Source: Hormiphora californensis | Lineage: Eukaryota; Animalia; Ctenophora | Length of the DNA stretch: 64,000 bases | Direction: 5' to 3' | NCBI GenBank assembly: GCA_020137815.1 | Contig: CM035352.1 | Span: forward strand, 186,001 to 250,000 | Shown here: positions 2,501-54,454 of the stretch, one piece after another | Layout: every line of letters begins with the position of its first letter | How positions within the stretch are numbered: position 1 is the stretch's first letter | Program-made: the position numbers and the translations under genes | The notes under the pieces: generated by a model | Seen by the model: only the letters and a program-made list of their open reading frames with translations | The model's database searches: none | What the model was told of the DNA's origin: nothing

Positions 2501-3055
2501 TCAACAATTTTGACCTGGGTTTGCTTTCCTGAGAAGCTGCAACAATGATTCCCTCCTTTCAAGGGTTACGATTACTGGTCTTGGACGGTTTTCAGTCATT
2601 TCGCCGACACGCTTTGTGGAAGACACGACTGGTTTTTCATTTAGCTCTGTAAAAATTTCTCGAACTTCATGCTCAGTAGTTCTTGCAGTAGTCTCTGGTA
2701 GCCCAAACAAAACCAAATTCAGCTTCCGATCAGGAGTTGCTTCTTCCGTTGTACTACTTGTAGGAAGAGGCACTGTCGCTTTCTTCCATGCTGCTTGTAG
2801 GCGGGATGGTGCAACAGCTGCTGAGCAGTTTTGTACAAGGACTTTTGAGTAGCCCTGCAGTTGCTTCTGAACAGACTCCGACACCGAATTGAGTTTCCGA
2901 TCTTGTACTTCAATCAGACTATTTTGTGCTTCAATCAGATTCTCTTGTAATTCAATCCTTGCTATCCGGTGTTTATCGACTTCTTCCTTGAATGAGCCAA
3001 GCTCTTTTTGTACCTTCTCGAGTTTCCGATTACACTCCCCTAAAGTACTCCCCAA
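2501..3055 (-). pseudogene. LINE (CR1/L2-type) ORF1 fragment, coiled coil plus RRM-like region
   Basis: Coiled coil followed by APSRLQAA...RKLNLVLFGLPE...RVG...RPRPVIVTL. Homologous to the other ORF1 copies in this window. Confidence 0.7.
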
Positions 3056-3679
3056 ACTACTATGTCCCTCACTCGGGTTTTGTGAAATTTCCCACGGTCA
3101 TAATTCCACTCCCTGATGAGATAAAGACTTGAAATTTGTTTTGTAGAAAGAACTCGACATGATCTCCTCACAAAACAAATTTCAAGTCTCTATCTCATCA
3201 GGGGGTGGAGCTATGGCTGTCTAAAATCCGGTCGCGTGCAGCAAGGGACATAATAGTTTGGGAGGACCTTTAGTTCCCGACGTTCTTTCATACGGACAGT
3301 TTCATCGTTATTTTTCATACATTGTCCAGCTTCCCTCACTATCAGAAGAATATGACGACAGAGGTTCTTGGTGTAAGCCATGAATTGATCTCCATTATAA
3401 TTTCTTGGAGCGTAGTCTACTGGCAGTGCTCGACGGGAATCCAAGAATAACATTCGCAGCTCTTCATCCACCTGATGGTGAACCAGTTTGGATCCATTCC
3501 TGATTAACAAAACGTCTCTTACTGCATAACGAAGTAGTTCCATCACCGTGGGATCAACACATTCCAGTGGATCGGCATCTGCATCAGATGTCTTTAGTTT
3601 CTCCGTCATAACTTCTGCCTGAGGACAATATCAAATTAATTTGTTTAAAGTAGTGTTGAAAAGTTTGAAACAGCTCCAT

Positions 3680-13099: not shown

Positions 13100-14128
13100 G
13101 TTAGGAACACTATTGGTGCGCGGTCGTGCCCACGGAAGGAGTGCTTGGATCATCTTGAAACCGGTTTTAAGTTAACTAATGCATATCCAAAAGTGTCTGT
13201 AGCTATTTGGGTGATGTTCTGACAATCCAATCACGAGTTATGACGAAAAAACCGTCAAAAAAGACGTTTTAAAGTGACAAAAAGGAGGATCTGAACACAG
13301 CCCTTATATGAAGGGTTAGGGCTATGAAACTTCTTGAGTGGACAGAGAATCGTCCAAATTTGTAGTGTCAACTTTGGAATAGTGTCTATTTTTTGTAGTT
13401 ATCATTTTGTCTCTTGAAAACCCTTATTGTCAGTCTCCGTGGTCACCGAGGTTCCAGTCCTAAGCGGTTTACAGACAGGAATGATTTTAATATTTTATAC
13501 TTGATTAAAAACAATGCAACGAATTAATTTATTTTAACCTTTATGTACTGATTACACTTATTGTTATATTCCGTATTAATGGGCCCGGTCAACCCGGTTT
13601 TTCGAAAAAAAATCTTTTGTAGTTATCTAATTAGAGCCGTTCAAACATGTGAGACGATCTGCAAAACAGGGTAATTTGGTACTGTTTCCGTCCCATATTG
13701 CTTGCTCTCACCGCTTGTATGCTTTAATCTGCTCTCTAATTGGGTAAATCTCGTCAAGTGATCACTTCACAAGCAAAAATACACAGTATTAGAGGCCCCT
13801 GCAGCATCTTCTCACATGTTTAAACAGCTGTAATTAGATAACTACATAAGATAGAAACTATTCCAAAGTTGAGACTGCAAATTTGGACGATTCTGTCCAA
13901 TCAAGAAGTTTCATAGCCCCAACCCTTCATATAAGGGCTGTGTTCAGGTCCTCCTTTTTGTCACTTTAAAACGTCTTTTTTGACTGTTTTTTGGTCATAA
14001 CTCGTGATTGGATTATCAGAACATCACTCAAATAGCAGATATGCATTAGTTAACTTAAAACCGGTTTCAAGATGATCCAAGCACTCCTTCCGTGGGCACG
14101 ACCGCACACCAATAGTGGTCCTGACTAC
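13100..14128. mobile_element. Foldback MITE with long inverted arms, hosting a short CRE 3' fragment
   Basis: ggaacactattggtgcgcggtcgtgcccacggaagg... and ...ccttccgtgggcacgaccgcacaccaatagtggtcc are inverted copies. Confidence 0.75.
13404..13614 (+). mobile_element. Severely 5'-truncated copy of the 3' end of the 7171-10171 CRE element
   Basis: Reverse complement of 7191-7380. 13-bp TSD ttttgtagttatc at 13391-13403 and 13615-13627. Confidence 0.85.
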
Positions 14129-14205
14129 TATGGTAGACTTGGGGGGACATTTCATTGCCCCACACGGTATATAAAATCATGTCAAATCGTGTTACCATAT
14201 GTTAA

Positions 14206-14674
14206 AGTGAGAGTGGACCGAATCAGAATTGAACAAGTTTGTTGTAGGTAGTAGAGATTAGCTTTCTGAGCATTTTGCGTTTTTGCCGCTCAAAATCGAC
14301 CCACCCATCACTGATATATTTTTGTTATGTTGGGAGAACTCCTGTTTAATCAGTATGTATAAAACAGAATAGAAACAATCGTGGTGTTTTACTAACACAT
14401 TCTGAATATAAGCAGTGAGGTTGACATGTCCATGCACAGAAGCAGGGCAATGCAAGCCAGCATATTAAAAATTTAAAGAATGTGTTAGTAAAACACAAGG
14501 ATTTTTTCTATCCTGTTTGATAAATATTGATCCAGCAAGAATTCTCCCAACATAACAAAGATATCTCAGTGATGGGTGGGTCGATTTTGAGCGGCAAAAA
14601 TGCAAAATGCTCAGAAAGCTAATCTCTACTACCTACAATAAACTTGTCCAATTCTGATCCGGTCCACTCTCACT
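14206..14674. mobile_element. TTAA-flanked palindromic MITE with AG...CT termini (Kolobok-like)
   Basis: ttaa-agtgagagtggaccg...cggtccactctcact-ttaa. Same family at 14972-17750, 35793-36253, 39189-42296 and 39460-39928. Confidence 0.85.
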
Positions 14675-14753
14675 TTAATAATGTAATAAGTACACAAAAC
14701 GAGCACACGAGAAGGGGCGGTAACAATTCATCAAAAAAATCCGACTTTAGCAG

Positions 14754-14855
14754 ATGGCTCGATGTAAGGAATTTCCGACGCTAAAAAATGATTTATTAAT
14801 CCGAGCAGCCCGTGGAGAAAAGGTGGAACGTATACCCGTTTGGGTTATGAGACAG
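14754..14855 (+). CDS. UROD: Uroporphyrinogen decarboxylase, coding exon 1
   Basis: [34 protein letters not shown], followed by a GTTAGT donor, phase 0. Confidence 0.95.
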
Positions 14856-15172
14856 GTTAGTATCGACCGAATCACTTGGTTACGAAGTTACCCCTTACCA
14901 GCGCGCGCGAAGGTCGCCCGGCGACCTGAGCTAGGGGTTACAGAAGCGGTTTGATTCACTTCAAAAATTAAAGTGAGAGTGGACCGAATCAGAATTGGAT
15001 AAAATTGTTGTAGGTACAGTCGGACCCCGATTTAGTGGCATCCTCGGGGGAACAAAATCCTGCCACTAAATCGGGGTGCCACTAAATCGGGGAGATCCAT
15101 ATTTGGCCCATAAAAACCTATTTTATGCCCAAAATGCTATACTACGACTAAAAACACCTCTAACTGTTATAT

Positions 15173-16560
15173 GCATCGAGCGCGTCTCTCTGGAGGTCCC
15201 TGGTTCAATTCCCGGTCGAACCCAGTATTTTTCGATTTTCTTCCCTATTTAATTCTTGCTCAGATCTCTTTATTCTGAATAATCAATTAATCTCTCCTTG
15301 ACCGAGATCTGCCCGTGTGTGTGTGAGATTCCCCTATATAACCGTTGTACGGAGGGCGTGTGTGTGTGTTGATCACCAGAAGGAGATATCAAAATTACTT
15401 CCTCTATCACATGGTGTCTAGCTAAGGGCATGTGCTTGAATATAGTGTGAAGAAATGCGATCTGTACAGGGGTTCGGTAGCTCAGTGGTAGAGCATCGAG
15501 CGCGTCTCTCTGGAGGTCCCTGGTTCAATTCCCGGTCGAACCCAGTATTTTTCGATTTTCTTCCCTATTTAATTCTTGCTCAGATCTCTTTATTCTGAAT
15601 AATCAATTAATCTCTCCTTGACCGAGATCTGCCCGTGTGTGTGTGAGATTCCCCTATATAACCGTTGTACGGAGGGCGTGTGTGTGTGTTGATCACCAGA
15701 AGGAGATATCAAAATTACTTCCTCTATCACATGGTGTCTAGCTAAGGGCATGTGCTTGAATATAGTGTGAAGAAATGCGATCTGTACAGGGGTTCGGTAG
15801 CTCAGTGGTAGAGCATCGAGCGCGTCTCTCTGGAGGTCCCTGGTTCAATTCCCGGTCGAACCCAGTATTTTTCGATTTTCTTCCCTATTTAATTCTTGCT
15901 CAGATCTCTTTATTCTGAATAATCAATTAATCTCTCCTTGACCGAGATCTGCCCGTGTGTGTGTGAGATTCCCCTATATAACCGTTGTACGGAGGGCGTG
16001 TGTGTGTGTTGATCACCAGAAGGAGATATCAAAATTACTTCCTCTATCACATGGTGTCTAGCTAAGGGCATGTGCTTGAATATAGTGTGAAGAAATGCGA
16101 TCTGTACAGGGGTTCGGTAGCTCAGTGGTAGAGCATCTAGCGCGTCTCTCTGGAGGTCCCTGGTTCAATTCCCGGTCGAACCCAGTATTTTTCGATTTTC
16201 TTCCCTATTTAATTCTTGCTCAGATCTCTTTATTCTGAATAATCAATTAATCTCTCCTTGACCGAGATCTGCCCGTGTGTGTGTGAGATTCCCCTATATA
16301 ACCGTTGTACGGAGGGCGTGTGTGTGTGTTGATCACCAGAAGGAGATATCAAAATTACTTCCTCTATCACATGGTGTCTAGCTAAGGGCATGTGCTTGAA
16401 TATAGTGTGAAGAAATGCGATCTGTACAGGGGTTCGGTAGCTCAGTGGTAGAGCATCGAGCGCGTCTCTCTGGAGGTCCCTGGTTCAATTCCCGGTCGAA
16501 CCCAGTATTTTTCGATTTTCTTCCCTATTTAATTCTTGCTCAGATCTCTTTATTCTGAAT
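15173..16560 (+). repeat. Tandem array of 4.3 near-identical 320-bp units, each with a tRNA-like Pol III gene
   Basis: tRNA-like starts at 15471, 15791, 16111 and 16431. Direct repeat tgttatatgca at 15165-15175 and 16562-16572. Confidence 0.92.
15471..15543 (+). ncRNA. tRNA-like (tRNA-Cys-resembling) Pol III unit with a degenerate anticodon arm; further copies at 15791, 16111 and 16431
   Basis: Acceptor GGTTCGG/TCGAACC, D arm GCTC-AGTGGTA-GAGC, T arm CCTGG-TTCAATT-CCCGG (one mismatch), T5 terminator immediately downstream. The anticodon arm is 18 nt, poorly paired and lacks U33. Confidence 0.7.
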
Positions 16561-18208
16561 GTGTTATATGCAATGTTCATGTATTGATGACATGATAATT
16601 TCTGATTAGAAATAGAAAATTTTTCGATTTTCTTCCCTATTTTAATTCTTGCTCTGAACTCATTATTCAGAAATAGAAAACTTTAAAATATTTTTTTCAA
16701 AAAAATTGTGAAAAATTTTCTAAGTTATACCAGCCCGTCCGATTTGTGTTTCGAATCGGTGCAGCTTACTGGATGTCCTGTCTAATTAGCAGGTTCGAAA
16801 CGAACCGATACGTGATACCATGCCGAATCGGGGTACCCTAAGCGGGTGAGGAAGTATCAAAATTTCAAAATAACTTTTTCTCTCAAAATTTTTGGGGAGC
16901 ACCGATCAAAGCATTGACAATCGTACTGTAAAATTTTGCAAAAAAGTTTTAAATTTTTTTTAAAAGTATACCAGCCAAGTCCGAATCGTGTTTCGAATCG
17001 GTGCATCTTATCGCATGTCCTGCTGCTAATTAGATGGTTCGGAACATGATCGCCATCGAATCGAAATTTTGACTCTTGGTGAACTTGTGATTCAATGGCC
17101 CCATGGGGATCACGTATCGGTTCGTTGCGAACCGTCTAATTAGCAGCAGGATATGCGATAAGATTCACTGATTCGAAACACGATTTGGACGTGGCTGGTA
17201 TACCTTTGAAAAATTTTCAAAAAATTTCACAAAAAATTTCAAAAAAATTTTGGGGGAAAAAAATCGTGCCACTAAATCGGGGTGCCACTAAATCGGGGGC
17301 CACTAAATCGGGGTTCGACTGTAGTAGAGATTAGCTTTCTGAGCATTTTGCGTTTTTGCCGCTAAAAATCGACCCACCCATCACTGAGATATCTTTGTTA
17401 TGTTGGGAGAATTCCTGCTGGATCAATATTTATGAAACAGGATAGAAACAATCCTTGTGTTTTACTAACACATTCTTTAAATTTTGAATATGCTGGCTTG
17501 CATTGCCCTGCTTCTGTGCATGGACATGTCAACCTCACTGCTTATAAGTATTCAGAATGTGTTGGTAAAACACCACGATTGTTTCTTTTCTGTTTTATAC
17601 ATACTGATTAAACAGGAGTTCTCCCAACATAACAAAATATCTCAGTGATGGGTGGGTCGATTTTGAGCGGCAAAAACGCAAAATGCTCAGAAAGCTAATC
17701 TCTACTACCTACAACAAACTTGTCTGATTCTGATTCGGTCCACTCTCACTTTAATAGCTCCTCGACCACTCAATGAAAATGCACCAAATTTTGGTATTCC
17801 CCACCAAATTGTCTGAAAATTACAATTCTGTACTCATATTTGAAAAATTATCTCCGGAACCTTGGTTTTAAGATCAGTTTTAGGTGTTAATGATGAATTT
17901 TTTTTTTGAAAAAGTAGGTCAGGTATGCTTAACATCATATTAAAGATCGTGGCAAAGTTTGAAGTTTTTATCTTCAAAGGTCTGGCCATCAAAATTAAAA
18001 AGGTCTTGAAGTAGGACCATTTGTACAAAATATGTTGTAACACAACTTCTACTTTGCCAAATTAACCCATTAGTGACCTGTGACGCGTTATCGCAACCCA
18101 GGTTTGGAGGCGTATTACGGCTAGATATGAGCATTTGAAATGCTGTAACCACCACACATCACTAGAGAATCGTTCGAACTAAAATTTTAGTCATTAAAAA
18201 GTTTTCTA

Positions 18209-18735
18209 AATTGGGGGGGGGGCCTGCCACAAAAATCTCAGCTACCCTCTTTTCGGCCGATGAGATTTTTGAGATTTTTGGGAAAATTTGCTCAATTACG
18301 TTTGAGATTTTTGAGATTTTTGTGGTAAATTGGCACAATTTTGGCTGCCAATACTCAGTTTTTCGACATATTTTTTATCTTAAAACTGAATCATAATAGC
18401 AGTTTAGTAATTTGAATAGGTAGATTTCATGTTTTAGCTTCACATTAACTTTTGTACTTGAACACAAGGAAAATTTCTATTCAGAATTTTCATTTTTGGT
18501 AGAAAAACACAAGGATTGTTTCTATTCCAAATTTTCGAATGGAAATCTCTCCTTTCTATGAGATTTTTGAGAAAAATTTGCGGGTTTTCCCCGAAAAATC
18601 GCAAATTTGCCTCAAAAATCTCAGAAATCCCACGTTTTTTAGCCAAAAATCGAAAATCTCAAAAATCCCAGCTACCCTGAAAATCGCCAATGAGGCATGA
18701 GATTCTTGCGGCAGGCCCCCCCCCCCCCCCAAATT
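18209..18735. mobile_element. Nested TIR element with poly-G/poly-C termini and gagatttt repeats
   Basis: aatt(g)n cctgccacaaaaatctc ... gagattcttgcggcagg(c)n aaatt. Confidence 0.65.
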
Positions 18736-19384
18736 GACCCTAATTTCCGTAATTATCAATCAAAAAGTACCAATTTCTGGCATTCGGACTAATGCACATA
18801 AATGTGCATTTATGTAATATATCTCGACTAGTTACCGATATGACACATAGCTGATCAGTTAGAGAAATGTTCAGAGATGTTTCTGTAAAAAAACTAGATC
18901 TCAAACGGATTTCCTGTTGGCCCTGTAGAGCCTCAAACAAGTGGGTTGCGGAAACGCTACACTGGCACGGGGCATATATTGGATGTTTTCAAAGCATGTT
19001 AAGGGGCAATTTAAAATAAATAAAAATTATAGGGCTATTTTTGGTGCCTTTTTATGTTTTTTAAAATCGATTAAAGCAAAAAAATCAACTCAAAAAATTT
19101 ATCGTTGCGTTTTCGCAACACACTTTTTGGCTGTTTCTGCCGGTTTCTGAGTCATTAAGTGGGATATTTAGCAAAATTATACATCAGTATGCTTATAAAC
19201 ATTACATTTTACAACCGTGGTTGGTTGAAAGTGTGTATATGAACCGTTTCCAATCGTTGCGTTTTCGCAACATCTATAAAGTAAACAATTTAGTACTGTA
19301 AATGACTCTGGGCCATTTTTATCTTGTTATTAACGATTCTAGTGTTTGATATGTCTAACCTATGACCTCGTGGGACATCTGGGA

Positions 19385-20480
19385 CGAGCTAGAGACACCC
19401 AGCACGACTTAGGGAGCACCCAGAACGGCAAAGAGAGCACCCAGGAGGTCCCAGTGATCGTCTGGGACAACTCAGAGACCACCAGCAACAACTTAGGGAA
19501 CGCCTGAAACAACCCAGGGGAGTGTGGGAGGACTCCTCGAGCAAAGTGGACGACTCAGGGAGCACCTGGGATGTCCCAGGACGAATCAAGGAGCATCCAA
19601 AACGGCAAATGGAGCACCCAGGAGGTCCCAGTGATCGTCTGGGACGACTCAGAGACCACCAGCAACAACTCAGGGAACGCCTGAAACAACCCAGGGGAGC
19701 GTGGGAGGACTCCTCGAGCAAAGTGGACGACTCAGGGAGCACCTGGGATGTCCTAGGACGAATCAAGGAGCATCCAAAACGGCAAATGGAGCACCCAGGA
19801 GGTCCCAGTGATCGTCTGGGACAACTCAGAGACCACCAGCAACAACTTAGGGAACGCCTGAAACAACCCAGGGGAGCGTGGGAGGACTCCTCGAGCAAAG
19901 TGGACGACTCAGGGAGCACCTGGGATGTCCCAGGACGAATCAAGGAGCATCCAAAACGACAAATGGAGCACCCAGGAGGTCCCAGTGATCGTCTGGGACG
20001 ACTCAGAGACCACCAGCAACAACTCAGGGAACGCCTGAAACAACCCAGGGGAGCGTGGGAGGACTCCTCGAGTAAAGTCGACGACTCAGGGAGCACCTGT
20101 GATGTCCCAGGACGAATCAAGGAGCATCCAAAACGGCAAATGGAGCACCCAGGAGGTCCCAGTGATCGTCTGGGACGACCCAGAGAGCACCAGCAACAAC
20201 TCAGGGAACGCCTGAAACAACCCAGGGGAGCGTAGGAGGACTCACCGAGTACACTGAACGACTCAGGGAGTACCTGGGAGGTCTCAGGACGACTCAAGGG
20301 GCATACAGGACGCCTAAAAGAGCGTTTGAGAGGTCCCCGAAAGCGCCCTGGGCGACTCAGGGAGCACCTTGGAGGTCCCAGTACGTTTCATGGAGTATAT
20401 AGGACTTTTTAGGGAGTATCTAGAGCGGCTCATCGAGCTCTCAGGAGTCTCCGGGAAGCACCTGGGACAACTCAGAGGAC
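19385..20480. repeat. 180-bp GC-rich tandem repeat (~4.5 conserved units plus decayed flank)
   Basis: gagcacccaggaggtcccagtgatcgtctggg recurs every 180 bp. Confidence 0.9.
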
Positions 20481-22405
20481 GCCCCAGTGAGTGATTATGG
20501 CCTGGGAGACACAGAATGGCTAAGGATATGCCCACTGGGCTTGAAAGTGGCTATACCCCCACACTAAACACTATATTTTCATGAATTTTCGGTCAAATTT
20601 ACAAATATTCAACCTTATTTTCTAATCCAACATGATCTCCCACCTTCCAATATCGATATGATTCACCCAATGTCGGTTCAAATCAACTTTAGTGATAATT
20701 TAACTGCTATTTCATAATGAAATTATATTGGTGTGAGGGTGGCACTATTTGCTGACATTTTTGCATGTTGCGGAAACGCAACCTTTCTGATTTCCTTCAA
20801 ATTCCCCATAGATACCGTAGTAAGACCTTTACGGTGCTGCTCAGTAGTATAGAAATCAAAAACACTGTACGAGATGGCCAGATTTGCTGTCGAATGAGGT
20901 GTTGCGAAAACGCAACGAAACTCTAAGCTGCCCCAAGCTTAAATCTGACTATCACAAACTATTTCTTCTATTACTAGACTGCCATTAATAACTTAGTTTG
21001 AAAAAAATTATTGAATGTTTAGCTGTTAACAGGCTCCGAATGTTGTTGCGAAAACGCAACGAAATTTAAACTTGCCCGGAGACAAAAACTAGATATCACA
21101 AATTATTTTCATAATAGATTGAAGTCTGTTAAGTGAAATTTTAAAATGATTGCATCATAATTTTAGCTGTAAAATGACTTTGAAAAGTGTTGCGAAAATG
21201 GGACGTGCCAGTGATGCGTTTTCGCAACAGGTTGTTTTAAGCACTTCCCGATAAGATAGAGACTTCCGCTTTTCAACTTACCATATTGGTGCTGCTAGGG
21301 CACTATTCCCAAAAAATTGGAAAATTTCTTCAAAAATTTCGATATCTGGGCACTAATGGGTTAAACCTGGTTTGAAACACTGAACTGCTAATCTATCCCT
21401 CCGAATACGGACGAAGTTTGAAACCGCCAGCTCTATTGACCGCTCTACAATACTTGTTTGTGTCAAAGAAATCAGGAAAGTAACAAGATTTGGTCTCGGT
21501 GTCGACCTGTGCGCAGCTCAGACCCCTAAGCTAGAACTATGTAGTGTAGACTACAACTTTTCAGTGCTCAGTATAACGTTTTGAGCGCGTTATGAAAATA
21601 GGGCAAGCGCTTCTGATACCTCTAAACAGAGTGTGAGGTGTCTTCGATACCAACCGAATCACTGGGCTAAGCTTTGACACCTAAAACCATTCGTGTACCT
21701 TATTCGGGGGGGGGGGGGGGGGGCACAGTGGGTAATTATGCCGCTTGATGGTCGTATAGCAAATATAGGAAAATCTACTGTGAAATTGGCCTGTTTACAA
21801 AATCTGGAATAGAAACAATCCTTGTGTTTTAATAGAAAATTCCAAAAATTGTCTTTTTATTTCAAAAAATGAAACTCGGGAAGCTTGAGTATAAATGTTT
21901 GATATTAAATAGACTTTTAAGCCATAAAACTATCTAGTAATCCTTAAAAAGTACATAATCCTCTAAATTAGTTGTATTTCTAGCTGTTGTGCACCCAGTT
22001 TTTATAAAAACTAAAACATTTGTTTTATTAATAATGCAGTGTAGCGGTGAATAGCGGTACATAATTTTTGTTGCGGATACTCGGAAGGGTCTATATTAAC
22101 ACGTGTAACCCTTGAATTTTCCGACTAATGACGACCAAACTACTATTTTTACTCTTATTTTCGTAAAAATAGGGTAATTTTACTATGCACACAGAAATGT
22201 TCACCGCCTATGAACGGAAAATCCAATTACCACATACTAAAAAGCATCAAAAAGACAAAATTATGATGAGTATGGTTAACATCTAGTTTGTCAGAGATAA
22301 AAAACATATAATGTAAGAAAAAAATCTGAAAATTGATAAATTTTACTGCCAAAATTGATTCAATTGCCATAATTTAAGTTTGCACATATTGTTTTATTCA
22401 TAATA

Positions 22406-22577
22406 CAGTCGGACCCCGATTTAGGGACACCCTCGGGGGAAAGGCTCTTGTCCACTAAATCGGGGTGTCCACTAAATCGGGGTCAAATAAGCTTAATTTC
22501 CTATATCGGGGGAAAAAAATCCTGTCCCTAAATCGGGGTGCCACTAAATCGGGGGCCCCTAAATCGGGGTCCGACTG
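22406..22577. mobile_element. 172-bp pogo-like MITE
   Basis: TA-cagtcggaccccgattta...taaatcggggtccgactg-TA. Confidence 0.88.
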
Positions 22578-23214
22578 TATAGGCATATCTTAATATTTTT
22601 TGATGCGGTTTTTTTGTACTGGCTAGACCTAACAATTCTCTATTGGGTAGCAAATTTGCAGCGAAATCGATTTTTTCCCTAAACGACCATCGTTACCCAC
22701 TGTGCTAAGATAGATAATTCTAAGTGGGAGGAGCTTGAATCCAGACTGAAGATTGACTTGCGAAGCACGGAAGAAAAAATCGTGGAACTTATTTGTGAAG
22801 CCAATAACATGCAGGAATTGATGAGCAACTCGAGCAGGGAATAGAAAACGTTTCAATTCTGGACAGCGCCTTCTTTAGAGAGGATAGTGAACTTCTCAAG
22901 GAAATTCATAAGTCAGTCACACCAATCGAGAAATCAGCAACAGAGATACCACCAACGGCTAGGGTCCTGGGGGTTGGTAATCAACAGAATCCCTCTCGAT
23001 CAACTAGAAACCGTCTACCATCAGAATTTGTTGTTCTTCTTCTTCTTCTGGGAGGACTTGTTCCCTTCAGACCTCGGAACCCCTCAACACAACAGATAGG
23101 TCGTGCCACTCCCGAACCTGACATCACGGGAAGAACCAAAACAACTGCTCTGATAACTGATAGTCTTCTTCGTTCAGCCCGCCCCAACGCAATCGGTAAA
23201 GGACATCAGTGCCA

Positions 23215-23400
23215 TGTTATCACATTTCACTTATTCACTTCTCACATTTCACTTCTCACTTCTCACATTTCACTTATTCACTTCTCACATTTCACTTATC
23301 ACTTCTCACATTTCACTTATCACTTCTCACATTTCACTTATCACTTCTCACATTTCACTTATCAGTTTCGTCACTTCTCACATTTCACTTATCAGTTTCG
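23215..23400. repeat. ~21-bp tandem repeat (cacatttcacttatcacttct)
   Basis: Directly visible, just upstream of the ORF1 copy. Confidence 0.88.
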
Positions 23401-23532
23401 TTTAAAAAAGCTCGCTCCTGATAGTTGCTTGTTCTTGCACCGTTGTACACGCGTGCCTTCACTACCTGGCGGCATGGCTGTCCAGGTACCCGTGCTGTTG
23501 CTTCTGATTACAGTCGGTTGGAGACGTCCATC

Positions 23533-25040
23533 ATGTCCACATTGAGACGAGTCGCGGGGTACCCTGACCCTAACAAGGAAAGCGGCACATTTGACCCGAA
23601 CAAGTTAACCAGCACCTATCTCTCTAAACTAGATACCAACAAGAAGGTCAGCTTTATCTCTGATCTGGCGGGTTTGCTTTGGTATCGTGCACTCCCTCTC
23701 GGTCGGTTAGCTAGGAAGAACTTGCTATCAGATAACACGCGGTCGGATCTGAGTAATTCTGTGTTTAGCACACGGAGCACCGTGAGAAATGAATCGAAAG
23801 AGAAGGTAGAGAAGCTCATGGAGCATCTGGACCACACCCGAGAACGTCTTGACAATGCTACAGATCTGCTATTAAAGTAAGAGTGGCGTGCCGTGTTTTC
23901 TCACAAAACTTAGTGGATGAACGGGGAGTACCACCAGGACCATTGGTAAGGTATCGAAAATTTCCAATTCTGTCGCGTTCATTAGTTATGACGTAATATG
24001 TTCATTATTTCAACTTTTATAAAATTGCTCTACAGAAAAATCGGTGCATTGTGGATTGAAATGGATGCTTGCATCGTGTTCAGCGTCAAAAAATAGCCGG
24101 GGTACCAAATTTTGGTGTCTCTACCTTATCTGTGACACGAGATATAGACAAATATCAAAAACGACCAAAGTGAGAGAAAGAGAGTTTGTTACAAGTGGGT
24201 GGCGCGCACAAACAACTAGCACCCAAAGATAACAATCTCTCTCTCACCCATTTTGGTCGTTTTTGATAATTGTCGATATCTCGCGTCACAGACAAGTTAG
24301 AGACACCAAAATTTGGTACCCCGGCTATTTTTTGACGCTGAACACGATGCAAGCATCCATTTTAATCCACAATGTACAGATTTTTCTGTAGAGCAATTTT
24401 ATGAAAGTTGAAATAATGAACATATTACGTCATAACTAATGAACGAGACAGAATTGGAAATTTTCGATACCGTACCAATGGTCCTGGTGGTACTCCCCGT
24501 TCATCCACTAAGTTTTGTGAGAAAACACGGCGCGCCACTCTTACTTTAAAGCGTGATTCTGAGATAATTGAACTGCAATCGGAGATCAGTGCCCTGAAAG
24601 ACTCGATCATATCAATGAAAGATACCATGCTAGAGAAGAGCGTGACCGCTGTACAGACTGTTGTTAAGGACGAGATCCAGAACTACTCTGCTGTTCTCCA
24701 GACAGCTGCTACTGCTGTGAACCAGACCTGTGTATCTGCCCTTGCTCCCAGTAAACTCCGAACAGCGATTGCCAGTGCTTCAGTAGACCGTAGTAGCAAC
24801 CTGATGGTGTATGGTCTCCCAGAGAGTAACCAGCAAAGTGACAGTACTTTAGTCAAGCAACTATTTGAACATTTGTCTGAAGCTCCAGTGTTATCAGTGG
24901 CGGCACGACTAGGAAAGAGAGAAGGTGAGAGGGCACGGCCAGTGCGGGTGGTGCTGAGGAACAGAGAGATTACCAGGACTATTTTGGGAAAATCGGTATC
25001 GCTAAAGGACTCAGACCAATATCAGTCAGTGTTCGTTGCA
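23533..25040 (+). pseudogene. LINE ORF1 split by a MITE (23533-23875 + 24550-25040)
   Basis: Removing the MITE restores ...ATDLLLKRDSEIIELQ...; then LAPSKLRTAI...DRSSNLMVYGLPE...RPVRVVL...SVFVA. Confidence 0.8.
23876..24545. mobile_element. Palindromic TTAA MITE with AG...CT termini (Kolobok-like, second family)
   Basis: ttaa-agtaagagtggcgtgccgtg...cacggcgcgccactcttact-ttaa. Confidence 0.87.
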
Positions 25041-25066
25041 CTCAAAGACCCACACAGTACCCCATA

Positions 25067-27300
25067 ATGCCCTGGACATGGAAAAGTTCGGAGAGTTCTT
25101 CAAAGATCTTAAATACGCAAACTCCCACTCAACTATATCGGACACCCAGAAATAACCAAGCTGAGAACAAGACCCCAATTGAAGATGCCCTTAAGAATCT
25201 GAACTCAGTCGTTACCCTTGAGGAAACAGTTAGATCCATTAAGCAGCTAAAATCCGGAAAAGCCGCTGGCCCGGATATGATCTCCAATGAGGTTCTCAAA
25301 CTACTTGACGAGGAACACCAACTGATGCTCACCCAGATATTTAACTGCTGTTTCAAGCAAGGCATTTACCCCTGGAACGCCAGTATTTAAATCACCCCGC
25401 TCCATAAAAAAGGGAGTACAAAGAATCCGGACAACTACCGAGCAGTCTCCGTGAGTAGTGCAATTGGTAAGCTAATGAGTTGCATATTACTGGAACGACT
25501 AAAGGAGTTCAGAAGTATTAAATGTCCTGACCACCCCAACCAACTTGGTTTCTGGAAGAAGTGCCAGACGAACGACCATTATATCTTCACAATGCTGACA
25601 CTTACCCAGAAAGCTAAACAGCAAAAGAAACCCCTGTTCGCAATAATGGTCGATTTCCGCAAGACTTTCGATAGCATTCCAAGGGAGGCACTTTTCTTAA
25701 AACTAGCAAGGATGGGAATCACCGGGAATTTTTACAACATTCCAAGGGATATGTATGGAAAATCATCAGGGACAATCAAGCTATCAGGCCATGTAAGCAG
25801 GGAGTTCCCTATCAGAAAGGGAACCGAACAAGGGCACCCGCTTTCACCTGAGTTGTTCAAGATTTTCTTGTACGACATGTCCCCACTCCTGGATAGGGAC
25901 CGACAGCAGTGAGAATCCATCCCTCAGAAATATCAAGGTGACACACCTCCTGTTCGCCGACGATCTGATAAATGCTCTCGCTATCGAGAAAGGCTGCCCA
26001 AAAGTAGGTTAAAATACTTTACAATTATTGCACAACCTGGGGGCTAGAAATGAACCTCGGAAAGACCAAGCTACTTGCCTTCAATGAGATTGATAAAGCC
26101 TAAAAACAACCCATATACCTATCCAGCACAGAGAAACTTGACGAAGCACCCAGCTACTGCTACCTAGCCATCAAAATGACATCTTCTGGAGACTTCAGTA
26201 TTGCCTCAAGAGCAGACCTCCACCTCAAAGCCACCAGAGCAGTATATGGACTCAAGAGGACCATTAGGAGAGACAAGGTATCCTTCAGTGCTGGGAGAGC
26301 GCTCTTTAATTCACTGATCAAGCCAATTCTACTGTATGGAGCTCCAATTCGGGCACCTGTGGACACCACGGTATCGCGGATCATCAAGGAGTCAGTACAT
26401 GGGGAAGCCAACAGTAGCCTTCTTCGAAAGATCTCAGCCGATAAATCGGCTCTCCTACCTGAAATGGCTCACAGGCGTTCTTAGCAAAACACAGAATGCA
26501 GCAATCTGGGGTGATAGTAATACCATCCCCTCAATGTGGAAGCACTCGACATTACCGTCAAGTACCTATCCAGGATTAAGACCCTCGATCCAACCTGGCT
26601 GGTCAATGCTGCTTACCATGAGCAGAAGAACCTTGGACTCCCCTGGTACAAATCATTAGTTCGACTCCTTAACACTGAACCACTCTATAGATTGAACCAC
26701 TTTGATGCCCTGGAAATCAAGGAAGGACGGAGGAAAGAACCAGAATTACCAAAAGTTAAACCCGCCCGAGCACAGACCCACGCCCCGAGTAGAATCTTCA
26801 GAGTCCCCTTAATTCACCAAAGAATTGCATCAACTTACTCCAAAGCCTGGAGCAACACTATCATTACCTCAAGGAAACTCGATTTCTATCAGAACTTCGA
26901 CCGGGAAAACGGTGTACAATCCTACCTGACTAATGTAACGAATTTTACCCATCGAGCAGCCCTGGCCAAGCTGAGAATGAGCTCACACTCCCTTAACATT
27001 GAAGTAGGGCGTCACCAAGGAATCGCCCGGGAGAATAGAAACTGACCCTACTGCAACATCACAATGGGTATAAGGCATAAGCACAACGGAAGCCGAGCTC
27101 CATGGGATCGACACCTGATTTGTGACCTCTACAACCCAGAAAGACAGACCCTGCTAACCGACCTCCCCAAAAGACAAGACCCCTCCCAGCCCATTCCCAT
27201 CATCTCCTCGATCATGTACACCACATCATAGCATTCACCTCGAACCTCCGGGCTCCTTGCACGTTTCGCCAGCGCTATCGAGTACAAGCGCGAGCGTTGG
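25067..27300 (+). pseudogene. Degenerate RTEX-like LINE ORF2 (reverse transcriptase and C-terminal region)
   Basis: LKSGKAAGPDMISNE, PDNYRA, VDFRKTFDSI, KGTEQGHPLSPELF, LFADD, LIKPILLYG, LAKLRMSSHSLNIEVGRH. Many frameshifts and stops. Confidence 0.85.
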
Positions 27301-27395
27301 ATGTCATCAATGACACCTCCCACTTAGCTTTCTCCCCTGTACTAGCTATGAAGTGGCAGCAGACTCCTTTTGTTTAGACCCCCTTCAGTGTTTAT

Positions 27396-28527
27396 GGTCT
27401 TGTTTTTTTTAACTGGTCGTCCGACCAAAATTTTTCAATCAATTATTCCGATAGATGGTGCGGTGTTCAAATTTAATTTAAAAAAAACCAGACCTCTATC
27501 TTACTCCTGAGCGGTGCTATTAATGAAAATACGACGTGCGGTGCTCTTGTGCGGTGCTGACCTCTAATTTGCCTCCTGATGCCTCTTATAAGTTGAAATT
27601 TCAGGAATCGATGGCCATAATTTTTCCCAATCAACAAAACCAACATCGATAAACATTTTACTCTTTTAGTGCGGTGCAGGCCTAAATTTCTGCTTTTTTC
27701 TTACTCTTGAAGGGTAAAATGAGCAAATAGCATTACGGTTTCTTGCACACCTTTTCTATCGACATTTCTTGATACTATGAACCTAAAATCAACACTAAAG
27801 TTTACTCATGGGGTGCGGTGCAGAGGCTTTAAAAGTGGTTGTATATTGCGACTTGTCAACTGCACCGCAATAAATGAGTAAATACGTCTGAAAACTAGCT
27901 AGTGGTGTAGCTAGTGTTTATATCAACTGTTTTTGATCAAAATTGGAGTCATTTACTCATTTGGTGCGGTGCATGGGCATTTTAATAGAACTTGATGTTT
28001 TCCGTGTCACCGCACCAAATAAGTAAATTTTTTGATTTCTTTTCAGCACTAATTGTTCCTTTACAAATGAGGAACGTATTAGTCAACATTTGGGGAATTT
28101 ATTTTAATTTATAATTATAAAATATTTATTTATTTATTTATTTATAATAGAGCCCATTTGATAGTATAAAACCTCGATTTAAAAATGCTGCTACTTTGAG
28201 TGCCAATTGCACCGCACTAGATGAGTCACATGCTTACTCATCGCTGTAGGCAAGATTTATAGAACAATTATCTGCAATTTTACTCAAAAATTGCAGTTTT
28301 ATTATTTGTCATGAAGATTTTGTGCCAGTTTTAGCAAACGTGGTCATATGCACCGCACAACACGAGTAAAGTTTAATAACACAAGCTTAAAATACTCTCA
28401 AGACACTTTTACATCATAGTTTTGATTTTTAGCAATTTTGAAAAAATATTTCTTACCTAAATACTCCTTTTTCCAAAATTTGTCAAATTTTCAGTCGAGG
28501 AGACGACCAGTTAAAAAAAACAAGACC
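27396..28527. mobile_element. TIR element with many gtgcggtgca subterminal repeats
   Basis: ggtcttgttttttttaactggtcgtc...gacgaccagttaaaaaaaacaagacc, flanked by ttat/ttaa. Confidence 0.75.
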
Positions 28528-29220
28528 TTAACATAAATGTTTTGATACCTAACGATAAGACCCCGGAATTTATATGTGTGTGAGTGGATTTTTAACTTGA
28601 TGTTATAAGTTTCACGAACAGGAAAGTGCTGATCAAGGGCAGTGCTATCCAGTTCTTACACTCATGGGAACATGAGTAGAACTAATTTACAAACCGTGTC
28701 AAACCGTGTCACACACACACACACACACACGTCACCCACACACTGATATTGATCAAGCGTTTGGATGATCAGAGGTGGGCGGAATGTTTGGCATCTGATT
28801 TTAGGTACATATCAAGAGAACTGCAAACAGACAACAGAGAATAGTTTAAGGCCTCTTCGCACATAGCTGCGGCCTGTCCCCAGCCGTTGTTGCATCGAAC
28901 CTGGATCCCTCTTTATTAACGGAACCAGCCATGCTGTTCCTGACGAGAGGAAGAAAGGGGAAGTGCTCCCTGGTTGGGGACAGGCCGTTGCTGTCTTCTT
29001 CATTTCACAGCCCCCGTGGGTTTTACTCACGGGCGTTCCACCCATGGGTTCCACCCATGTGGGTCATTCACGAGCACTCACACTAGTGTCGGCCAAATCG
29101 CAATGACGAAAGTCGCGATAGTTCTTTAGGGTTTCACACAGAAGAACAAGAACAAGAAGAAGATGTCAAGTATGTGTCAAATTTTTCAAGCTGGAGATGT
29201 TAATCTTTACAATTTTTCAG

Positions 29221-29371
29221 GCTGGACGATATCTTCCAGAGTACCGAGAACTTCGAAAACAATACGATTTTTTTACTATATGCCAAACACCTGAGCTAGC
29301 ATGTGAAGTTACACTACAACCAATTAGGCGTTTCGAGCTGGATGCAGCTATTATATTTTCTGACATTCTAG
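29221..29371 (+). CDS. UROD: Uroporphyrinogen decarboxylase, exon 2
   Basis: tttttcag acceptor; AGRYLPEY...[27 protein letters not shown]; GTATGT donor, phase 1. Confidence 0.96.
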
Positions 29372-29417
29372 GTATGTTATACATGTGTAAATACTATTAT
29401 GTGTCTTTTTTCAGGTA

Positions 29418-30105
29418 TTTTTTCCCTGCCCGGGTGATTGCCGAAGGCAATCACCCGGGATGATCTTTTTAGCACGCACGTGCTAAAAAGATCATTCAGG
29501 GTTTAGAAATCAGCAGATTGTGTAGTTAACTAAAAGTGTCCGTCCGTCCGTCCGTCCGTCACGGACAACGCCTAACAACAAGTCTGCTCCTTCATAAAAC
29601 TTTCATCTCACGATTCGTTGATTCAATAAAGGAAATGATTAACACACATTGTGGCACGCAATTACTCGCTGATAGCACTTCCCACTATCACCTGAAATCA
29701 CTTTGGGCGCCCTACATCCATGCTATGAAGTGGTAGAACGTCTTCCAAGCATGAAACTACTGTCACACTTGAGACTCGAGTTGAGATGCGGTTAAAGTTG
29801 AAGCACTTGGTAACCAACTGGGGTCTCCTAAGCAACTGCCTTGGTTGCCATAGCAACTGTCTTGGTTATCATAGCAACTGCTTTGATTACCATAGCAACT
29901 GCTTTGGTAACCATAGCAACTGCTTTGGTAACCATAGCAACTTACTTAGTTACCTTAGTAACCAACATCGCATCAGCCAAAAAATGCTATTTGAGCACAA
30001 AATTCATCAGGAAATCCAGTTTTGAAGCTTATCCATCAATTTTAAATCCATTTGTGGCAGGGAAACACCGCATTATGAATACATAATGCAATAATTCTTG
30101 TTTTT
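29418..30105 (+). mobile_element. Helentron-associated / DINE-1-like non-autonomous element (HINE)
   Basis: 5' subTIR tttccctgc plus hairpin, (gtcc)n microsatellite, 3' subTIR gcagggaaa, terminal stem-loop gcattatg-aata-cataatgc, T-run ends. Other copies at 42862-46460, 51765-56670 (-) and 61205-61315 (-). Confidence 0.72.
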
Positions 30106-30332
30106 AGCGGTGTGCGAACTCTAGTGCTACACTCTAAGTCTAAAGAGGACTATATATCTAAATTTAGATTTAGATAAAGAGTCCAAATAATTATAAACTA
30201 TAGGAGGAGATAAAGAGTCCAAATAATTATAAACTATAGGAGGACTCTTTATCTAAAAAGTCTACACAGGGCGGACTCTTTATCTAAAAAGTTTAAACTA
30301 AGTGGACTCTATATCTACATAAATCTAAATTA

Positions 30333-30496
30333 TCTTTGCTTATAAAGGGATTACTGGTAAAGCGCTCGACAGGATCAAGATTCTGGAGCTGATTACAAAG
30401 TAATACAAGGTCGTTTACTCAGAGTTTCATGCTTTCGCAATCGTCTGACGATTGCGAAAGCATGAAACTCTGAGTAAACGACCTTGTATTACTTTG
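30333..30496. mobile_element. 164-bp Penelope-type mini-insertion: ~60-bp tail plus a 107-bp perfect palindrome carrying a hammerhead core
   Basis: 13-bp TSD taaatctaaatta (30320-30332 / 30497-30509). The empty site is visible in the paralogous element near 54620-54640. Confidence 0.75.
30441..30483 (+). ncRNA. Minimal type-I hammerhead ribozyme motif
   Basis: CTGACGA-T-TGC-GAAA-GCA-T-GAAA-CTC-T-GAG-TA. Confidence 0.65.
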
Positions 30497-30583
30497 TAAA
30501 TCTAAATTAGATATAGAGCCCGCCTTTCGCCGCGAACTCGAGATTTCGGCCGTTAGGCCGGAAACGAGAGTTTGCTCTACCCA

Positions 30584-30886
30584 TCTAACTATATCTAATG
30601 CAAATTTGCACGGAAATGTGACACCCTATCGTCAATGTGACGATGTGATCCGTCAATGTGACGACGTGATCCGTCAGCGTGACGACATGATCCATCAGTG
30701 TGACGACGTGATTCGTAGGTATCACGTATCACATGTGTTGAGAACTGCTTGCGACTTGAGGGGTCACATCACATGTATAAAAGGGAGAGAAAGAGAGGGA
30801 TCACATCACATAGCATATAGCAGACAGGCAGAGAGAAAAACAGACCCCTCGATTTGCGATCGGTACGATCGCCCCCGTTTTGCTAG
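30584..30886 (+). mobile_element. Non-autonomous Helitron
   Basis: A|TC start, subterminal hairpin gcgatcg-gta-cgatcgc, CTAG|T end, internal 21-bp repeats. Second copy at 43187-43506 (-). Confidence 0.85.
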
Positions 30887-32062
30887 TATATACTAATTTA
30901 GAAGTGTAAGGGCCGTTATTTGGGTTCGGGGTTAGGGTTAGGGTTAGGGTTAGTATTAGGATTAGGTTTTGGGTTGGGTTAGGATTTTAGACATAGAGTC
31001 CGGGTTGGAGGATTTGGCGCCAAAATGTACTAGAGGACTCTATGTCTAAAAAGTCTACACAGGGAGGTCTCTTTATCTAAACTTTTTTCAAAATCTAACT
31101 GTAGATAAAGAGTCCGTTTTTAGATATAGAGTCCGCCTTGGATTTAGATAAAGAGTCCGTTAGGACTAGAGTCCGCCCACCTTTTTTAGCACACACGTGC
31201 AAAAAATATCATTCAGGGATTAGAAATCAGCATTGTAGGGGTTAACTAAATGTATCTGTCTGTCCACCGGCTGGCTGCGAACTGCCTTCGTCCCCAAAGT
31301 TATGCCACTACGGATTATGGTGGTGCATGCTCAAAAGTAGTATGAAGACTATTGGAACAAGGATATTGTATTAAATATGCACTGAACTGCTGTAGACATC
31401 ACCCACTCACTTCATACACACACAACACCCACACACATGACCAAGCCTGTACAACAGGTTATTGATCACCGGCTGTATTACAGCACGAAAGAGCCGTCAC
31501 TAGTATCGTGCAGGGATCCGAAGATCATGTAATGATAACAATTAATATGACGTGATCAACTACTATAGCCCAACTGTTCATTCTGAGAATTCTGATACAG
31601 TGGGTGTTGTGTGTGTATGAAGTGAGTGGGTGATGTCTACAGCAGTTCAGCACTGCTGATAATAAGAGCCCTGTTTATACGCCTAATCTGTTCAGATAGC
31701 AATGAAACACAAGGATTGTTGCTATCCGAGATTCCTGAATATAAAGATACGCCAATTCGAATAGTACTGTGGGTATGTGCCTAGATTAATCGAACCCAGT
31801 GGATTCCCTTGGTAACTCCCATGTTAAACAAGGAGACGAAACTGGGGGGTTGGAGTTACCTCATATATCAGTACGGCAAATAATATCTTTGTATCAGAAT
31901 TCTCAGTATGAACAGTTGGGCTATAGCAGTTGATCACGTCATATTAATTGACTATTGGAACGTGAGAAGTTTTCCATGCAGCAGCCAGCTATCAAAAGTT
32001 CTGGATTTCTATATCAGGTAACGTTTTGCATGACTAAGTTCTCACAGTTGCAATTTTTACAG

Positions 32063-32415
32063 TGATTCCCCAAGCTCTTGGAATGGAAGTTCTTATGAAA
32101 CCAGGCATTGGTCCTGTCTTCACCGAACCTTTAAACACACCAGCGGATATGGAAAAACTTGATATGAATGTTGATGTAATAGAAAAGTTATCGTATGTTT
32201 ATGAGGCTATAAGTTTAACACGGTGCAGATTGGAAGGGACAGTCCCATTGATAGGATTCAGCGGTGCCCCATGGACATTAATGGCATACATGATAGAAGG
32301 TGGAGGAAGTAAGACTATGAATAAAGCTAAAAAATGGCTTTATGCGAGTCCCAATGAAAGTCATACACTACTGCAAGTTATCTCGAAAACAATCACAAAA
32401 CATCTCATTCAGCAG
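32063..32415 (+). CDS. UROD: Uroporphyrinogen decarboxylase, exon 3
   Basis: tttttacag acceptor; VIPQALGM...VPLIGFSGAPWTLMAYMIEGGGSK...LIQQ; GTATG donor, phase 0. Confidence 0.96.
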
Positions 32416-33506
32416 GTATGTATTGAAAAAATCCATTTTTATGTTTGACTTTTCAAACAGACTGATGAAATCGGGGGTGGGTTGAAATCGTGTTCTGATA
32501 AAACTTGATCAAAATTTAGCTAAAGCCAGGGCTGGCTCCAGCCCGATATTTCTGGGGGGGGGGGTGCAGTGGCCGAAGGCCACTGTTCCCTAAAAGTAGC
32601 ATTAAATTCAGTGATTTAATTCGGTTGTGATCAGTCAAAAATTTTACTGAAAATTTTGTATTTTTGGGGTGGTTTCCCAATCCAAATGGTCTCAGATAGT
32701 CTTGGCAGCTTCGCTCATCACCCTTCTGGAGCCAGCCCTGGCTAAAGCTCCACTTTGCCAACCTAGACTGCCTTTCTCAGTCAAGGGTATCTGTATACCG
32801 ATCTATTCCGCGATGCTGCGTTGTGGGGCTCACGTGCACGTGATGAGTGCTGAAAAAATACTCTGCGCTCTCCCTCGCAGTCTAATCACTGTCTCTCACT
32901 TTGAGTGAGAGAAAGGGAGAGAAAGAAAGATGGTGAGACGGAGAGAAAAAAATAAGAGAAAGAAAGAGGGTGAGATGGAGAGAAAAGAGAAAAATGTGTG
33001 TGTTTGAGAATGTGTCTTATGAATCGGAGAAATGTCGGTGCTGCGGGGCTTTGGGTGGCCATTTATACCAAGTGGCCATTTGTACCATGAATCAGGCTTT
33101 TCAGCATTTTTTCTTTTTTTCACTTTTTTTTCTTGCACATTTTCCTACTTTTATTTGCAGTAGTAGTGGGGACGAATTTAAACTTTTTGAGTTTTTATTT
33201 GTCGGAAAGCAAATTCCGGTTGTAACCGACTAATTTTGTACAAGGAGTACAAGCGTGTTTACAAGGGGACCCCAACAGGCCCCAACTTGAGGGGCTCCCC
33301 CTGGGCCCACATTGGGCGCCGGGCGGGTGGGGCGTGTACCTATGTTTTTTGGGACTCCAATAGCATGCTTGTTACGATGTAGTGTTCAAAATAATTAAAT
33401 AAAATTTGGGTTTTTAGGCCCTTTAAACTAACGGCTAAGTCGACAAAAATTTCACTTAGCACACCCAGTGGACACTCCCCCCACCCTTTAATGCAACATC
33501 CCACAG

Positions 33507-39974: not shown

Positions 39975-40775
39975 CCCGGTGTCCCGATTTTTTTTTCACG
40001 CCTGGAATTTTCATTTTGGGAGCTCGTTTTGCTGCAGGAATTTTACTATTTGCTGCAGTCATGGATAGGGATTTTGCCGTCCTAAAATACCCCGGCAGTC
40101 CCAGTACCCCTAACATTGGAATATTTCCCTACTGCAGTCATTGGAATATTCCATCTTTGCAGTGCCTGCTGCAGTGCTGCTGCTAGTAGTGGAAATTCCT
40201 TGGAATATTCCATCTCTGCAGTGCTGCTGCAGCAGTGGAAATGTCTTGGAATATTCCACTCAGGGACTGCAACAGTGACTATAACGATCTCACCCCTTTG
40301 TAAAGCTATGGGGAAAAAAGAGAGCTATGTTAAAGTATGAATCTCTCTTTTCTTCCCCTTCCCTGCTGCAGTGCTGCAGCGACTGCAGAGATGGAAAATT
40401 CCGAGAAAATTCCACTCAGGTACTGCAACAGTGACTATAACGATCTCACCCCTTTGTAAAGCTATGGGGAAAAAAGAGAGCTTTGTTAAAGTATGAATCT
40501 CTCTTTTCTTTCCCCCTCCCCCTTACTCGACTGTTGTCGGTGCATTACGCACAACTGGGGCATGCCCCAACATATTCTATCTCTCTGTTACACACTGTTA
40601 ACACTGCAGCACTGCTGTATCTCTGCGTGTAAGTATGGAAAATATCTTCTGCTGCTGCAGCAGCTGCTGCTGCAGCAGTCCCCCAATATTTTTTCATTTT
40701 GCTGCAAGGATTTTGTTTTGCTGCAGAATTTTTGCATTTATCTTTCCTTCATATTCCAGAGATCGGGACACTGGG
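39975..40775. mobile_element. TIR element with 8-bp TSD (hAT/P-like), rich in ctgcag repeats
   Basis: cccggtgtcccgat...atcgggacactggg. TSD tcctgttt at 39967-39974 and 42133-42140 (right copy displaced by the Penelope insertion). Confidence 0.75.
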
Positions 40776-40779
40776 TCCT

Positions 40780-53878: not shown

Positions 53879-54454
53879 ATTATTGCATTATGTATTCATA
53901 ATGCGGTGTTTCCCTGCCACAAATGGATTTAAAATTGATGAATAAGCTTCAAAACTGGATTGAAATGGCGTTTTTTGCGCTTTTTTGCCCTAGATGCGAT
54001 TTTCTCCTTTGGATACTTTTATATATTTCCGCCCACGGTCCTGCGTAGTTCCCAGAGGTCCCCTTTAGGTCACACAACCGTTCGTTTTGCTGGGGGACTC
54101 GGTCGAGGTTGAACGTCCTTCAGGGACACCGTGTATGGTAACCAAAGCAGTTGCCTAGCTAGGAGAGCCCAATTAGTTACCAAGAACTTCAACTTTAATC
54201 GCATCTCAACTTGAGTCACTAGTACTAGTGACTGTAGTTTCATGCTTGGAAGACGTTCAACCACTTCATGGCATGGCTGTAGGGCGCCCGGAGTGATTTC
54301 TGGTGATAGTAGGAAGTGCTATCAGCGAGTAATTCGTGCCACAATGTGCGTTAATCATTTCCGTTGTTGAATCAACGAAGCGTGAGATCAAAGTTTTATG
54401 AAGGAGCAGACTTGTTGTTAGGCGTTTTCCGGGACGGACGGACACATTTAGTTA

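Follow-up and report, generated by a model that had tools for sequence, protein, structure and literature searches.

A 64-kb window of Hormiphora californensis DNA (CM035352.1, positions 186,001-250,000 of the forward strand; all coordinates below are window positions) contains an array of a tRNA-bearing 320-bp unit. The array is an insertion that lies between target-site duplications (TSDs) and belongs to a high-copy repeat family, which probably represents a non-autonomous retroelement. Taken together, three explanations make it likely that the array was retroposed from a multimeric template: copying of a read-through RNA, copying of an RNA circle, and mobilisation of a short interspersed nuclear element (SINE)-like sequence by a long interspersed nuclear element (LINE). 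The best single model, held with about even confidence, is that a Penelope-type reverse transcriptase (RT)/endonuclease copied a linear multi-unit read-through RNA.

The 320-bp period spans 4.34 head-to-tail copies with a GC content of 45%. The copies differ internally at one site, a substitution at 16138, as the original prediction of 4.3 copies with a single change had stated. The start in the middle of the tRNA with 3-nt microhomology, also predicted, is borne out by three bases common to the left flanking 11-mer and the unit. The two array termini differ in unit phase. The 11-mer is found at 15165 and 16562 and at no other place in the window, and the chance of such a repeat at both array junctions is roughly estimated at 2e-5. 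The array lies in a miniature inverted-repeat transposable element (MITE), which we take to be pogo-like. The features of the region are as follows.

15017-17321, no strand assigned: host MITE, TA-flanked and with terminal inverted repeats, nested in another MITE
15173-16560, + strand: array of 4.34 head-to-tail copies of 320 bp, with its 5' truncation within the tRNA D arm
15165-15175, + strand: left 11-bp TSD copy, its last 3 bases common to TSD and unit
16562-16572, + strand: right 11-bp TSD copy, with one extra G (16561) between array end and TSD
16540-16558, + strand: predicted 5-bp hairpin, ending 2 bases before the array 3' end; candidate reverse-transcription start
16620-16668, + strand: older unit-trailer piece, 49 bp, about 50 bp downstream of the array
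16608-16619 and 16669-16680, + strand: exact 12-bp direct repeats round the older piece, nowhere else in the window

Empty sites are present in other copies of the host element, where the original prediction suggested looking for them. In public sequencing run X1, the left flank is joined straight to the right 11-mer (before 16562) in 10 contigs, and the left 11-mer (behind 15175) is joined straight to the right flank in 6 contigs. Array-free copies of the host MITE thus carry a single 11-mer, and not the two that had been named as contrary evidence, so the 11-bp repeat is a true TSD.

The unit was also compared with the rest of the window by BLAST and local alignment. Outside the array, the only match is a 54-bp older piece at 16619-16672, 91% identical to the unit trailer. 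The 49 bp between its own direct repeats are an older, separate insertion of the same unit. One X8 contig shows the corresponding empty site: its joint 16607->16669 skips 61 bases, and 11 letters fit both sides. The 54-bp match had been considered as a mark of homology-driven repair, but this was dropped, since the piece has its own TSD and empty site.

The older piece had gone unremarked in the earlier reading, and it fixes the 3' end. It begins at the run of five T (T5) behind the tRNA-like sequence and stops at unit position 15275-15279, next to the array end at 15280. The coincidence of the two ends on a 320-bp unit is estimated at about 3% by chance. Both insertions terminate just past the small predicted hairpin, whose stem carries an A-T/T-A swap between the array and the older piece. 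Neither 3' junction has a poly(A) or simple-repeat tail.

The tRNA-like part of the unit

The Rfam tRNA model, a search that the original prediction had proposed, gives 39.7-40.5 bits for four full tRNA-like copies (gathering score 29).

15471-15543, 15791-15863, 16111-16183 and 16431-16503, + strand: tRNA-like copies found with Rfam, with non-canonical anticodon arm
15173-15223, + strand: first tRNA-like copy, truncated, 5' third missing
15548-15552, + strand: T5 run that immediately follows the tRNA-like sequence in each unit; predicted RNA polymerase III (Pol III) terminator

Boxes A and B are present, as in SINEs. The acceptor stem has 7 bp including one G-U, and the D stem pairs. Each unit had been described as keeping its tRNA arms and terminator. 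This holds for the acceptor and D stems and for T5, but the T stem contains one U-C mismatch and the first copy is incomplete. The anticodon arm is non-canonical, as predicted, with one C-U mismatch in the stem and a 7-nt loop bearing G at 33 and C at 37. A canonical tRNA anticodon loop has U33 and a purine at 37. The paired anticodon stem, U33, purine 37 and intact T stem of a functional tRNA gene are thus not found together, and decoding by the tRNA-like sequence is unlikely because of the two mismatched stems and the loop.

Scores above the Rfam threshold might point to an ordinary array of tRNA genes. Alternatively, the number of copies could be an assembly error: it is read from the assembly, no long read was seen for the locus, and among the contigs listed none bridges either array junction. 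Both possibilities are very improbable. The former conflicts with the mismatched anticodon and T stems and with the loop; the latter conflicts with the differing end phases, the TSD with its empty site, and the private substitution in one copy.

The position of T5 behind each tRNA means that a plain Pol III transcript would end at about 80 bases and would not cover the unit. The template of the insertion is therefore likely a read-through product. The tRNA-like part most probably represents a non-decoding Pol III cassette that was captured and would help to keep arrays transcribed.

No hammerhead was found in the unit, in agreement with the original prediction. The core CTGANGA is absent from both strands of the doubled unit. 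A pattern scan for a minimal hammerhead with stem II finds none in the unit, whereas it detects the cores in both Penelope-like copies of the window. Rfam reports no ribozyme at E<=1 in 14000-18000. A hepatitis delta virus-like ribozyme around the motif GCTAAGGG, fitted by eye, was rejected, as the order of helices is wrong; Rfam gives no ribozyme. Weak Rfam matches to MIR5185 and Plastid-ycf2 lie far under their gathering scores and were dismissed.

The repeat family in public sequencing contigs

Contigs were taken from five of 24 public runs (X1, X5, X7, X8 and X15), with X16-X20 (small shares) and the other DNA runs outside this set. They were aligned to two stretches, each holding about one unit and one flank. 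The listing gives the best-supported rows, with 22 of the 350 loose ends and 32 of the roughly 5,900 pieces. End counts take plus-strand records only, as minus-strand coordinates are ambiguous in orientation.

The unit belongs to a high-copy family with head-to-tail continuity in three DNA runs, in which joints across the head-to-tail position are listed. At those unit positions that branch least, the summed depth amounts to about 7,800 in X1, 17,000-53,000 in X5 and 1,600 in X8; it serves for order of magnitude and is not a copy number. Single listed contigs have depths of roughly 4-15, 40-280 and 7-64, respectively. These values suggest that organism A has hundreds of units and organism B tens. 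Depth is unbroken round the whole unit, and the spacer and tRNA depths are contiguous and of the same order. Two exact-pattern scans of metagenome contigs found 0 loci.

The 3' ends are clustered. On the 3' side, 7 of the 10 listed plus-strand DNA contigs continue for at least 20 unaligned letters; of these, five stop at 15269-15299 and the other two at 15314 and 15402. Listed loose 3' ends that lead into mixed or unrelated sequence fall at 15268 (8 contigs), 15286 (2) and 15280 (1). The listed loose 5' ends, by comparison, are spread over 15177, 15184 (8 contigs), 15186, 15226 (4), 15245 and 15430. No end cluster is located at the tRNA 5' or 3' boundary among the best 22 of 350 loose-end rows. 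Fixed-end monomers at other loci, which the original prediction named as the mark of an ordinary SINE with local duplication, are not seen among the contig ends listed.

The spacer part 15320-15402 (83 bp) also occurs in organisms A and B as dispersed pieces that have their right end, at 15402, in common. These pieces possibly reflect a second priming site or a separate family sharing the module.

A high-copy, head-to-tail family in three DNA runs could also have spread as a satellite at the DNA level, if part of an array was copied into a staggered break from an extrachromosomal circle or by template switching in the course of break repair. The 3-nt microhomology at the 5' junction is compatible with this, and amphibians are known to have tandem repeats of 200-360 bp that contain a tRNA, as far as PMC10702118 and PMC12054243 describe them. 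Such a process does not predict the common 3' end in two separate insertions and further contigs, nor two TSDs of 11-12 bp that match those of the local Penelope-like elements. Spread at the DNA level is improbable.

The metatranscriptome X15 provides 9 low-depth contigs that tile the whole unit. One runs for 249 bases via the spacer and the tRNA past T5, and another crosses the 3'-end position, whereas 42 bp of host flank are uncovered. The contigs give a weak hint of read-through RNA.

The 5' ends and the X15 contigs also bear on the proposal that the tRNA fold takes the place of a hammerhead. Host tRNA enzymes would cut the fold, ligation would yield a 320-nt circle, and copying round the circle would produce multimers. 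The end data are matched better by cleavage in the anticodon loop and subsequent RtcB ligation than by RNase P/Z. In full, the non-canonical anticodon loops of successive units would be cut, closure by RtcB would restore the tRNA-like fold, and a Penelope-type enzyme would copy the 320-nt circle into TSD-flanked multimers. Eight X5 contigs begin at 15184, in the middle of the anticodon loop, with mixed sequence upstream, and one X15 contig begins at 15186; however, the 15184 cluster is listed in a single DNA run, and the tRNA boundaries show no cluster. The array copies agree at 15/15 family-variable sites, as one circular template would give, but a homogeneous source array yields equal identity. 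Variable sites are somewhat rarer in the tRNA (1/73) than in the spacer (14/180; p=0.07), or 2/73 when the D-loop insertion is counted (p=0.16). RNA-library contigs tile the full unit, but contigs cannot reveal circles or RNA ends. RtcB circularises retrozyme monomers in vitro, according to the account in PMC7229834, and retrozyme circles are described as highly self-paired in the sections of PMC7761336 consulted, whereas the present unit folds no better than shuffles on either strand (z 0.32 and 0.08). Taken together, the circle is a doubtful explanation. If true, it would reveal a mobile circular RNA that relies on borrowed tRNA processing and not on self-cleavage, and would offer a route for the spread of tRNA-containing satellites.

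Insertion mechanism and related elements

The preferred 3' end, the scattered 5' ends, the 5' microhomology and the 11-12 bp TSDs point to target-primed reverse transcription. The missing tail and the continuation of the unit past the 3' end fit internal priming, as with the Penelope-like enzyme of anole. The parts of PMC11167929 that deal with this enzyme report that it primes internally in a stem-loop on unprocessed RNA, favours AT-rich DNA and does not need hammerhead cleavage, and that two Penelope start sites lie 30-40 bases apart. With internal priming on unprocessed RNA, a linear read-through RNA of an existing array suffices as template.

In the model of linear read-through RNA, an RNA polymerase would read through a homogeneous array that already exists, for example from a host intron. 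The Penelope-type enzyme would nick AT-rich DNA with an 11-12 bp stagger. Priming would occur internally at the small hairpin, predicted about 55 bases past the tRNA-like sequence, and reverse copying would proceed back through several units until an early stop, where the product may be joined by the 3-nt microhomology. Long products would give multimers like the array, and short products would give fragments of 50-100 bp. With a multimeric template, every unit would keep the upstream flank and the terminator that an ordinary SINE loses. The tRNA-like part would not be required for RNA cutting.

The window contains two Penelope-like copies.

40768-42136, - strand: Penelope-like copy 1, 5'-truncated, with inverted 5' part, hammerhead core near the 3' end and 12-bp TSD
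52524-53890: Penelope-like copy 2, built as copy 1, with 12-bp TSD that is offset by about 70 bp on one side

For one copy, 23 of 24 relatives of at least 500 aa contain the RT motif GLYRDD, and most of these have a GIY-YIG-like motif behind it. The open reading frames (ORFs) of the two copies align in the RT/GIY-YIG-like region (E 1e-5). Pfam gives no match for either ORF and no relevant match for 7 relatives, so the Penelope-like identity rests on motifs, hammerhead cores and structure. The original prediction gave window Penelope TSDs of 12-13 bp; both copies have 12 bp, and a 13-bp TSD was not found. A Penelope-type partner, at which that comparison of TSD sizes hinted, is likely.

Several observations weigh against the read-through model with a Penelope-type partner. 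TSD length does not single out Penelope, and the unit has no significant homology to an autonomous partner, as judged from the Penelope-like copies of the window. The best candidate, unit trailer 15541-15570 against 40959-40988 (- strand) in the 3' region of a Penelope-like copy, matches at 23/30 bases and scores 30, compared with 22-30 for window-wide shuffles; p is about 0.004 only in a post hoc narrowed test, and the comparison is limited to two partial copies. A second cluster of listed loose 3' ends is located at 15402, with 8 contigs in X5 and 7 in X8 (two organisms). It is as large as the first and lies 120 bases away. In some copies a different sequence lies directly upstream of the tRNA (4 contigs in X8), and a joint 15232->15468 occurs in X5 and X8; a SINE-like subfamily could give such copies. 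Contig ends may also mark subfamily divergence, and a second flank or TSD is not seen at the contig loci. X15 may contain DNA, and its contigs show no strand, RNA ends or circles. The change 15218 G>A, which breaks an acceptor-stem pair, accounts for 71-82% of summed depth in three DNA runs, so the tRNA fold is not strictly kept. Finally, the sequence is equally compatible with an insertion of 1.3 units that grew locally afterwards. The insert needed a head-to-tail template of at least 1.3 units, and the remaining copies may have grown in place. The predicted insertion of the multimer in one event is thus upheld as to the head-to-tail template and the retroposition-like ends, whereas unequal crossing-over from 1.3 units explains the copy number equally well.

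Such growth is part of a further alternative, in which a LINE mobilised a SINE-like element with a 3' stem-loop, inserting about 1.3 units that grew to 4.3 by unequal crossing-over. The fixed 3' end, 5' truncation and TSD also suit LINE machinery, and the window contains several RT remnants of LINE type. Squamates commonly have SINE-derived satellites of 4-5 units, as described in the relevant part of PMC10702118. However, a tail is absent at both 3' junctions, the unit continues beyond the 3' end without a scar, and the LINE 3' regions in the window give no match to it. A heterogeneous end cluster at the tRNA head is not among the listed loose ends, and a head-to-tail template would still be needed. 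Mobilisation by a LINE is unlikely.

An ordinary tRNA-derived SINE has its start at the tRNA head and a poly(A) or simple-repeat tail at its end, and is dispersed as monomers. The array family resembles it in the tRNA-like part with boxes A and B, the TSD and the 5' truncation. Unlike it, the family keeps 180 bp upstream of the tRNA, has a terminator in mid-element, lacks a tail and is arranged head to tail. Neither the head start nor the tailed monomer is found at the two junctions, other loci being seen as contig pieces.

Metazoan non-LTR retrozymes (LTR, long terminal repeat) are among the closest counterparts. As far as they are characterised in the portions used of PMC7229834, PMC7761336 and bioRxiv 10.64898/2026.07.22.740005, they share with the array tandem non-coding units of a few hundred bp (about 150-400 bp), GC below 50%, few copies per locus, a TSD of more than 4 bp and a proposed Penelope-like partner. 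They differ in carrying a type I hammerhead in each unit, where the present one has a tRNA-like cassette, and homology of the present unit to pseudo-LTRs (pLTRs) is not significant. Abundant unit-length circular RNA is a further mark of retrozymes; RNA of the present unit is seen as assembled contigs of one metatranscriptome. The family is not a non-LTR retrozyme, because the unit lacks a hammerhead. Schistosoma Sm-alpha/Sj-alpha, in the summary given by the review PMC6765202, likewise consist of retroposed tandem units with a Pol III promoter and have multimeric transcripts; an active hammerhead is present there and absent here, where T5 directly follows the tRNA-like promoter.

MRC1 of Chlamydomonas and other non-autonomous Penelope-like elements form multicopy head-to-tail insertions with 5' truncation, and the array is likewise a partial-tandem, multicopy head-to-tail insertion truncated at its 5' end. 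In the corresponding passages of PMC8557442, most Naiad/Chlamys elements are without hammerheads, and elements of the MRC1 type generally resemble their autonomous family at the 3' end, with no mention there of a tRNA cassette.

The amphibian repeats PolIII/TAN, OAX and Rana/polIII and the squamate SINE-derived satellites also have tandem units of 200-360 bp with a tRNA-like part. The amphibian repeats have been known for decades. The descriptions drawn from PMC10702118 and PMC12054243 state that these amphibian and squamate repeats often lack a matching SINE and call their origin unconfirmed, and they include no multimer between TSDs for which an empty site and a fixed 3' end are given. Searches of the literature, outside subscription journals, Repbase and bioRxiv supplements, brought up neither the family nor a ribozyme-free, tRNA-bearing counterpart. 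The two insertions with TSDs and empty sites, one of them a multimer, and their common 3' end tie a tRNA-bearing tandem unit to retroposition. If the Penelope-type partner is true, the family would be a SINE-like Penelope passenger, free of hammerheads and carrying a whole Pol III cassette. The family offers a way to test directly if retrozyme-type spread depends on a ribozyme or a circle at all.

Genomic setting

The array likely lies within an intron of a uroporphyrinogen decarboxylase (UROD) gene, downstream of the first exon below and on the same strand.

14754-14855, + strand: UROD exon, then GT donor
within 32038-32448: later UROD exon

The exon at 32038-32448 has its best relative, at 91% identity, in the comb jelly Pleurobrachia bachei, and the other matches listed reach at most 74%, which points to a related ctenophore as the host. 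The stretch of about 17 kb between the two UROD exons found (14856-32040) is occupied by nested MITEs, tandem repeats and LINE remnants.

The end of the host MITE is supported by heterogeneous flanks at 17323 in 41 (X5) and 80 (X8) contigs. Short, internally deleted relatives are located at 22406-22579 and 44601-44781. In one X5 contig, another copy of the host MITE carries a 30-letter insert at 17114-17122 with a 9-bp duplication; the start of the insert resembles the minus strand of the unit spacer, which may be chance.

Two palindromes lie elsewhere in the window. An imperfect one at 3040-3273 contains a hammerhead-like core on both strands (3113 on +, 3201 on -). The other, at 54864-56422, is a near-perfect palindrome of 1.56 kb with 97.9% arm identity.

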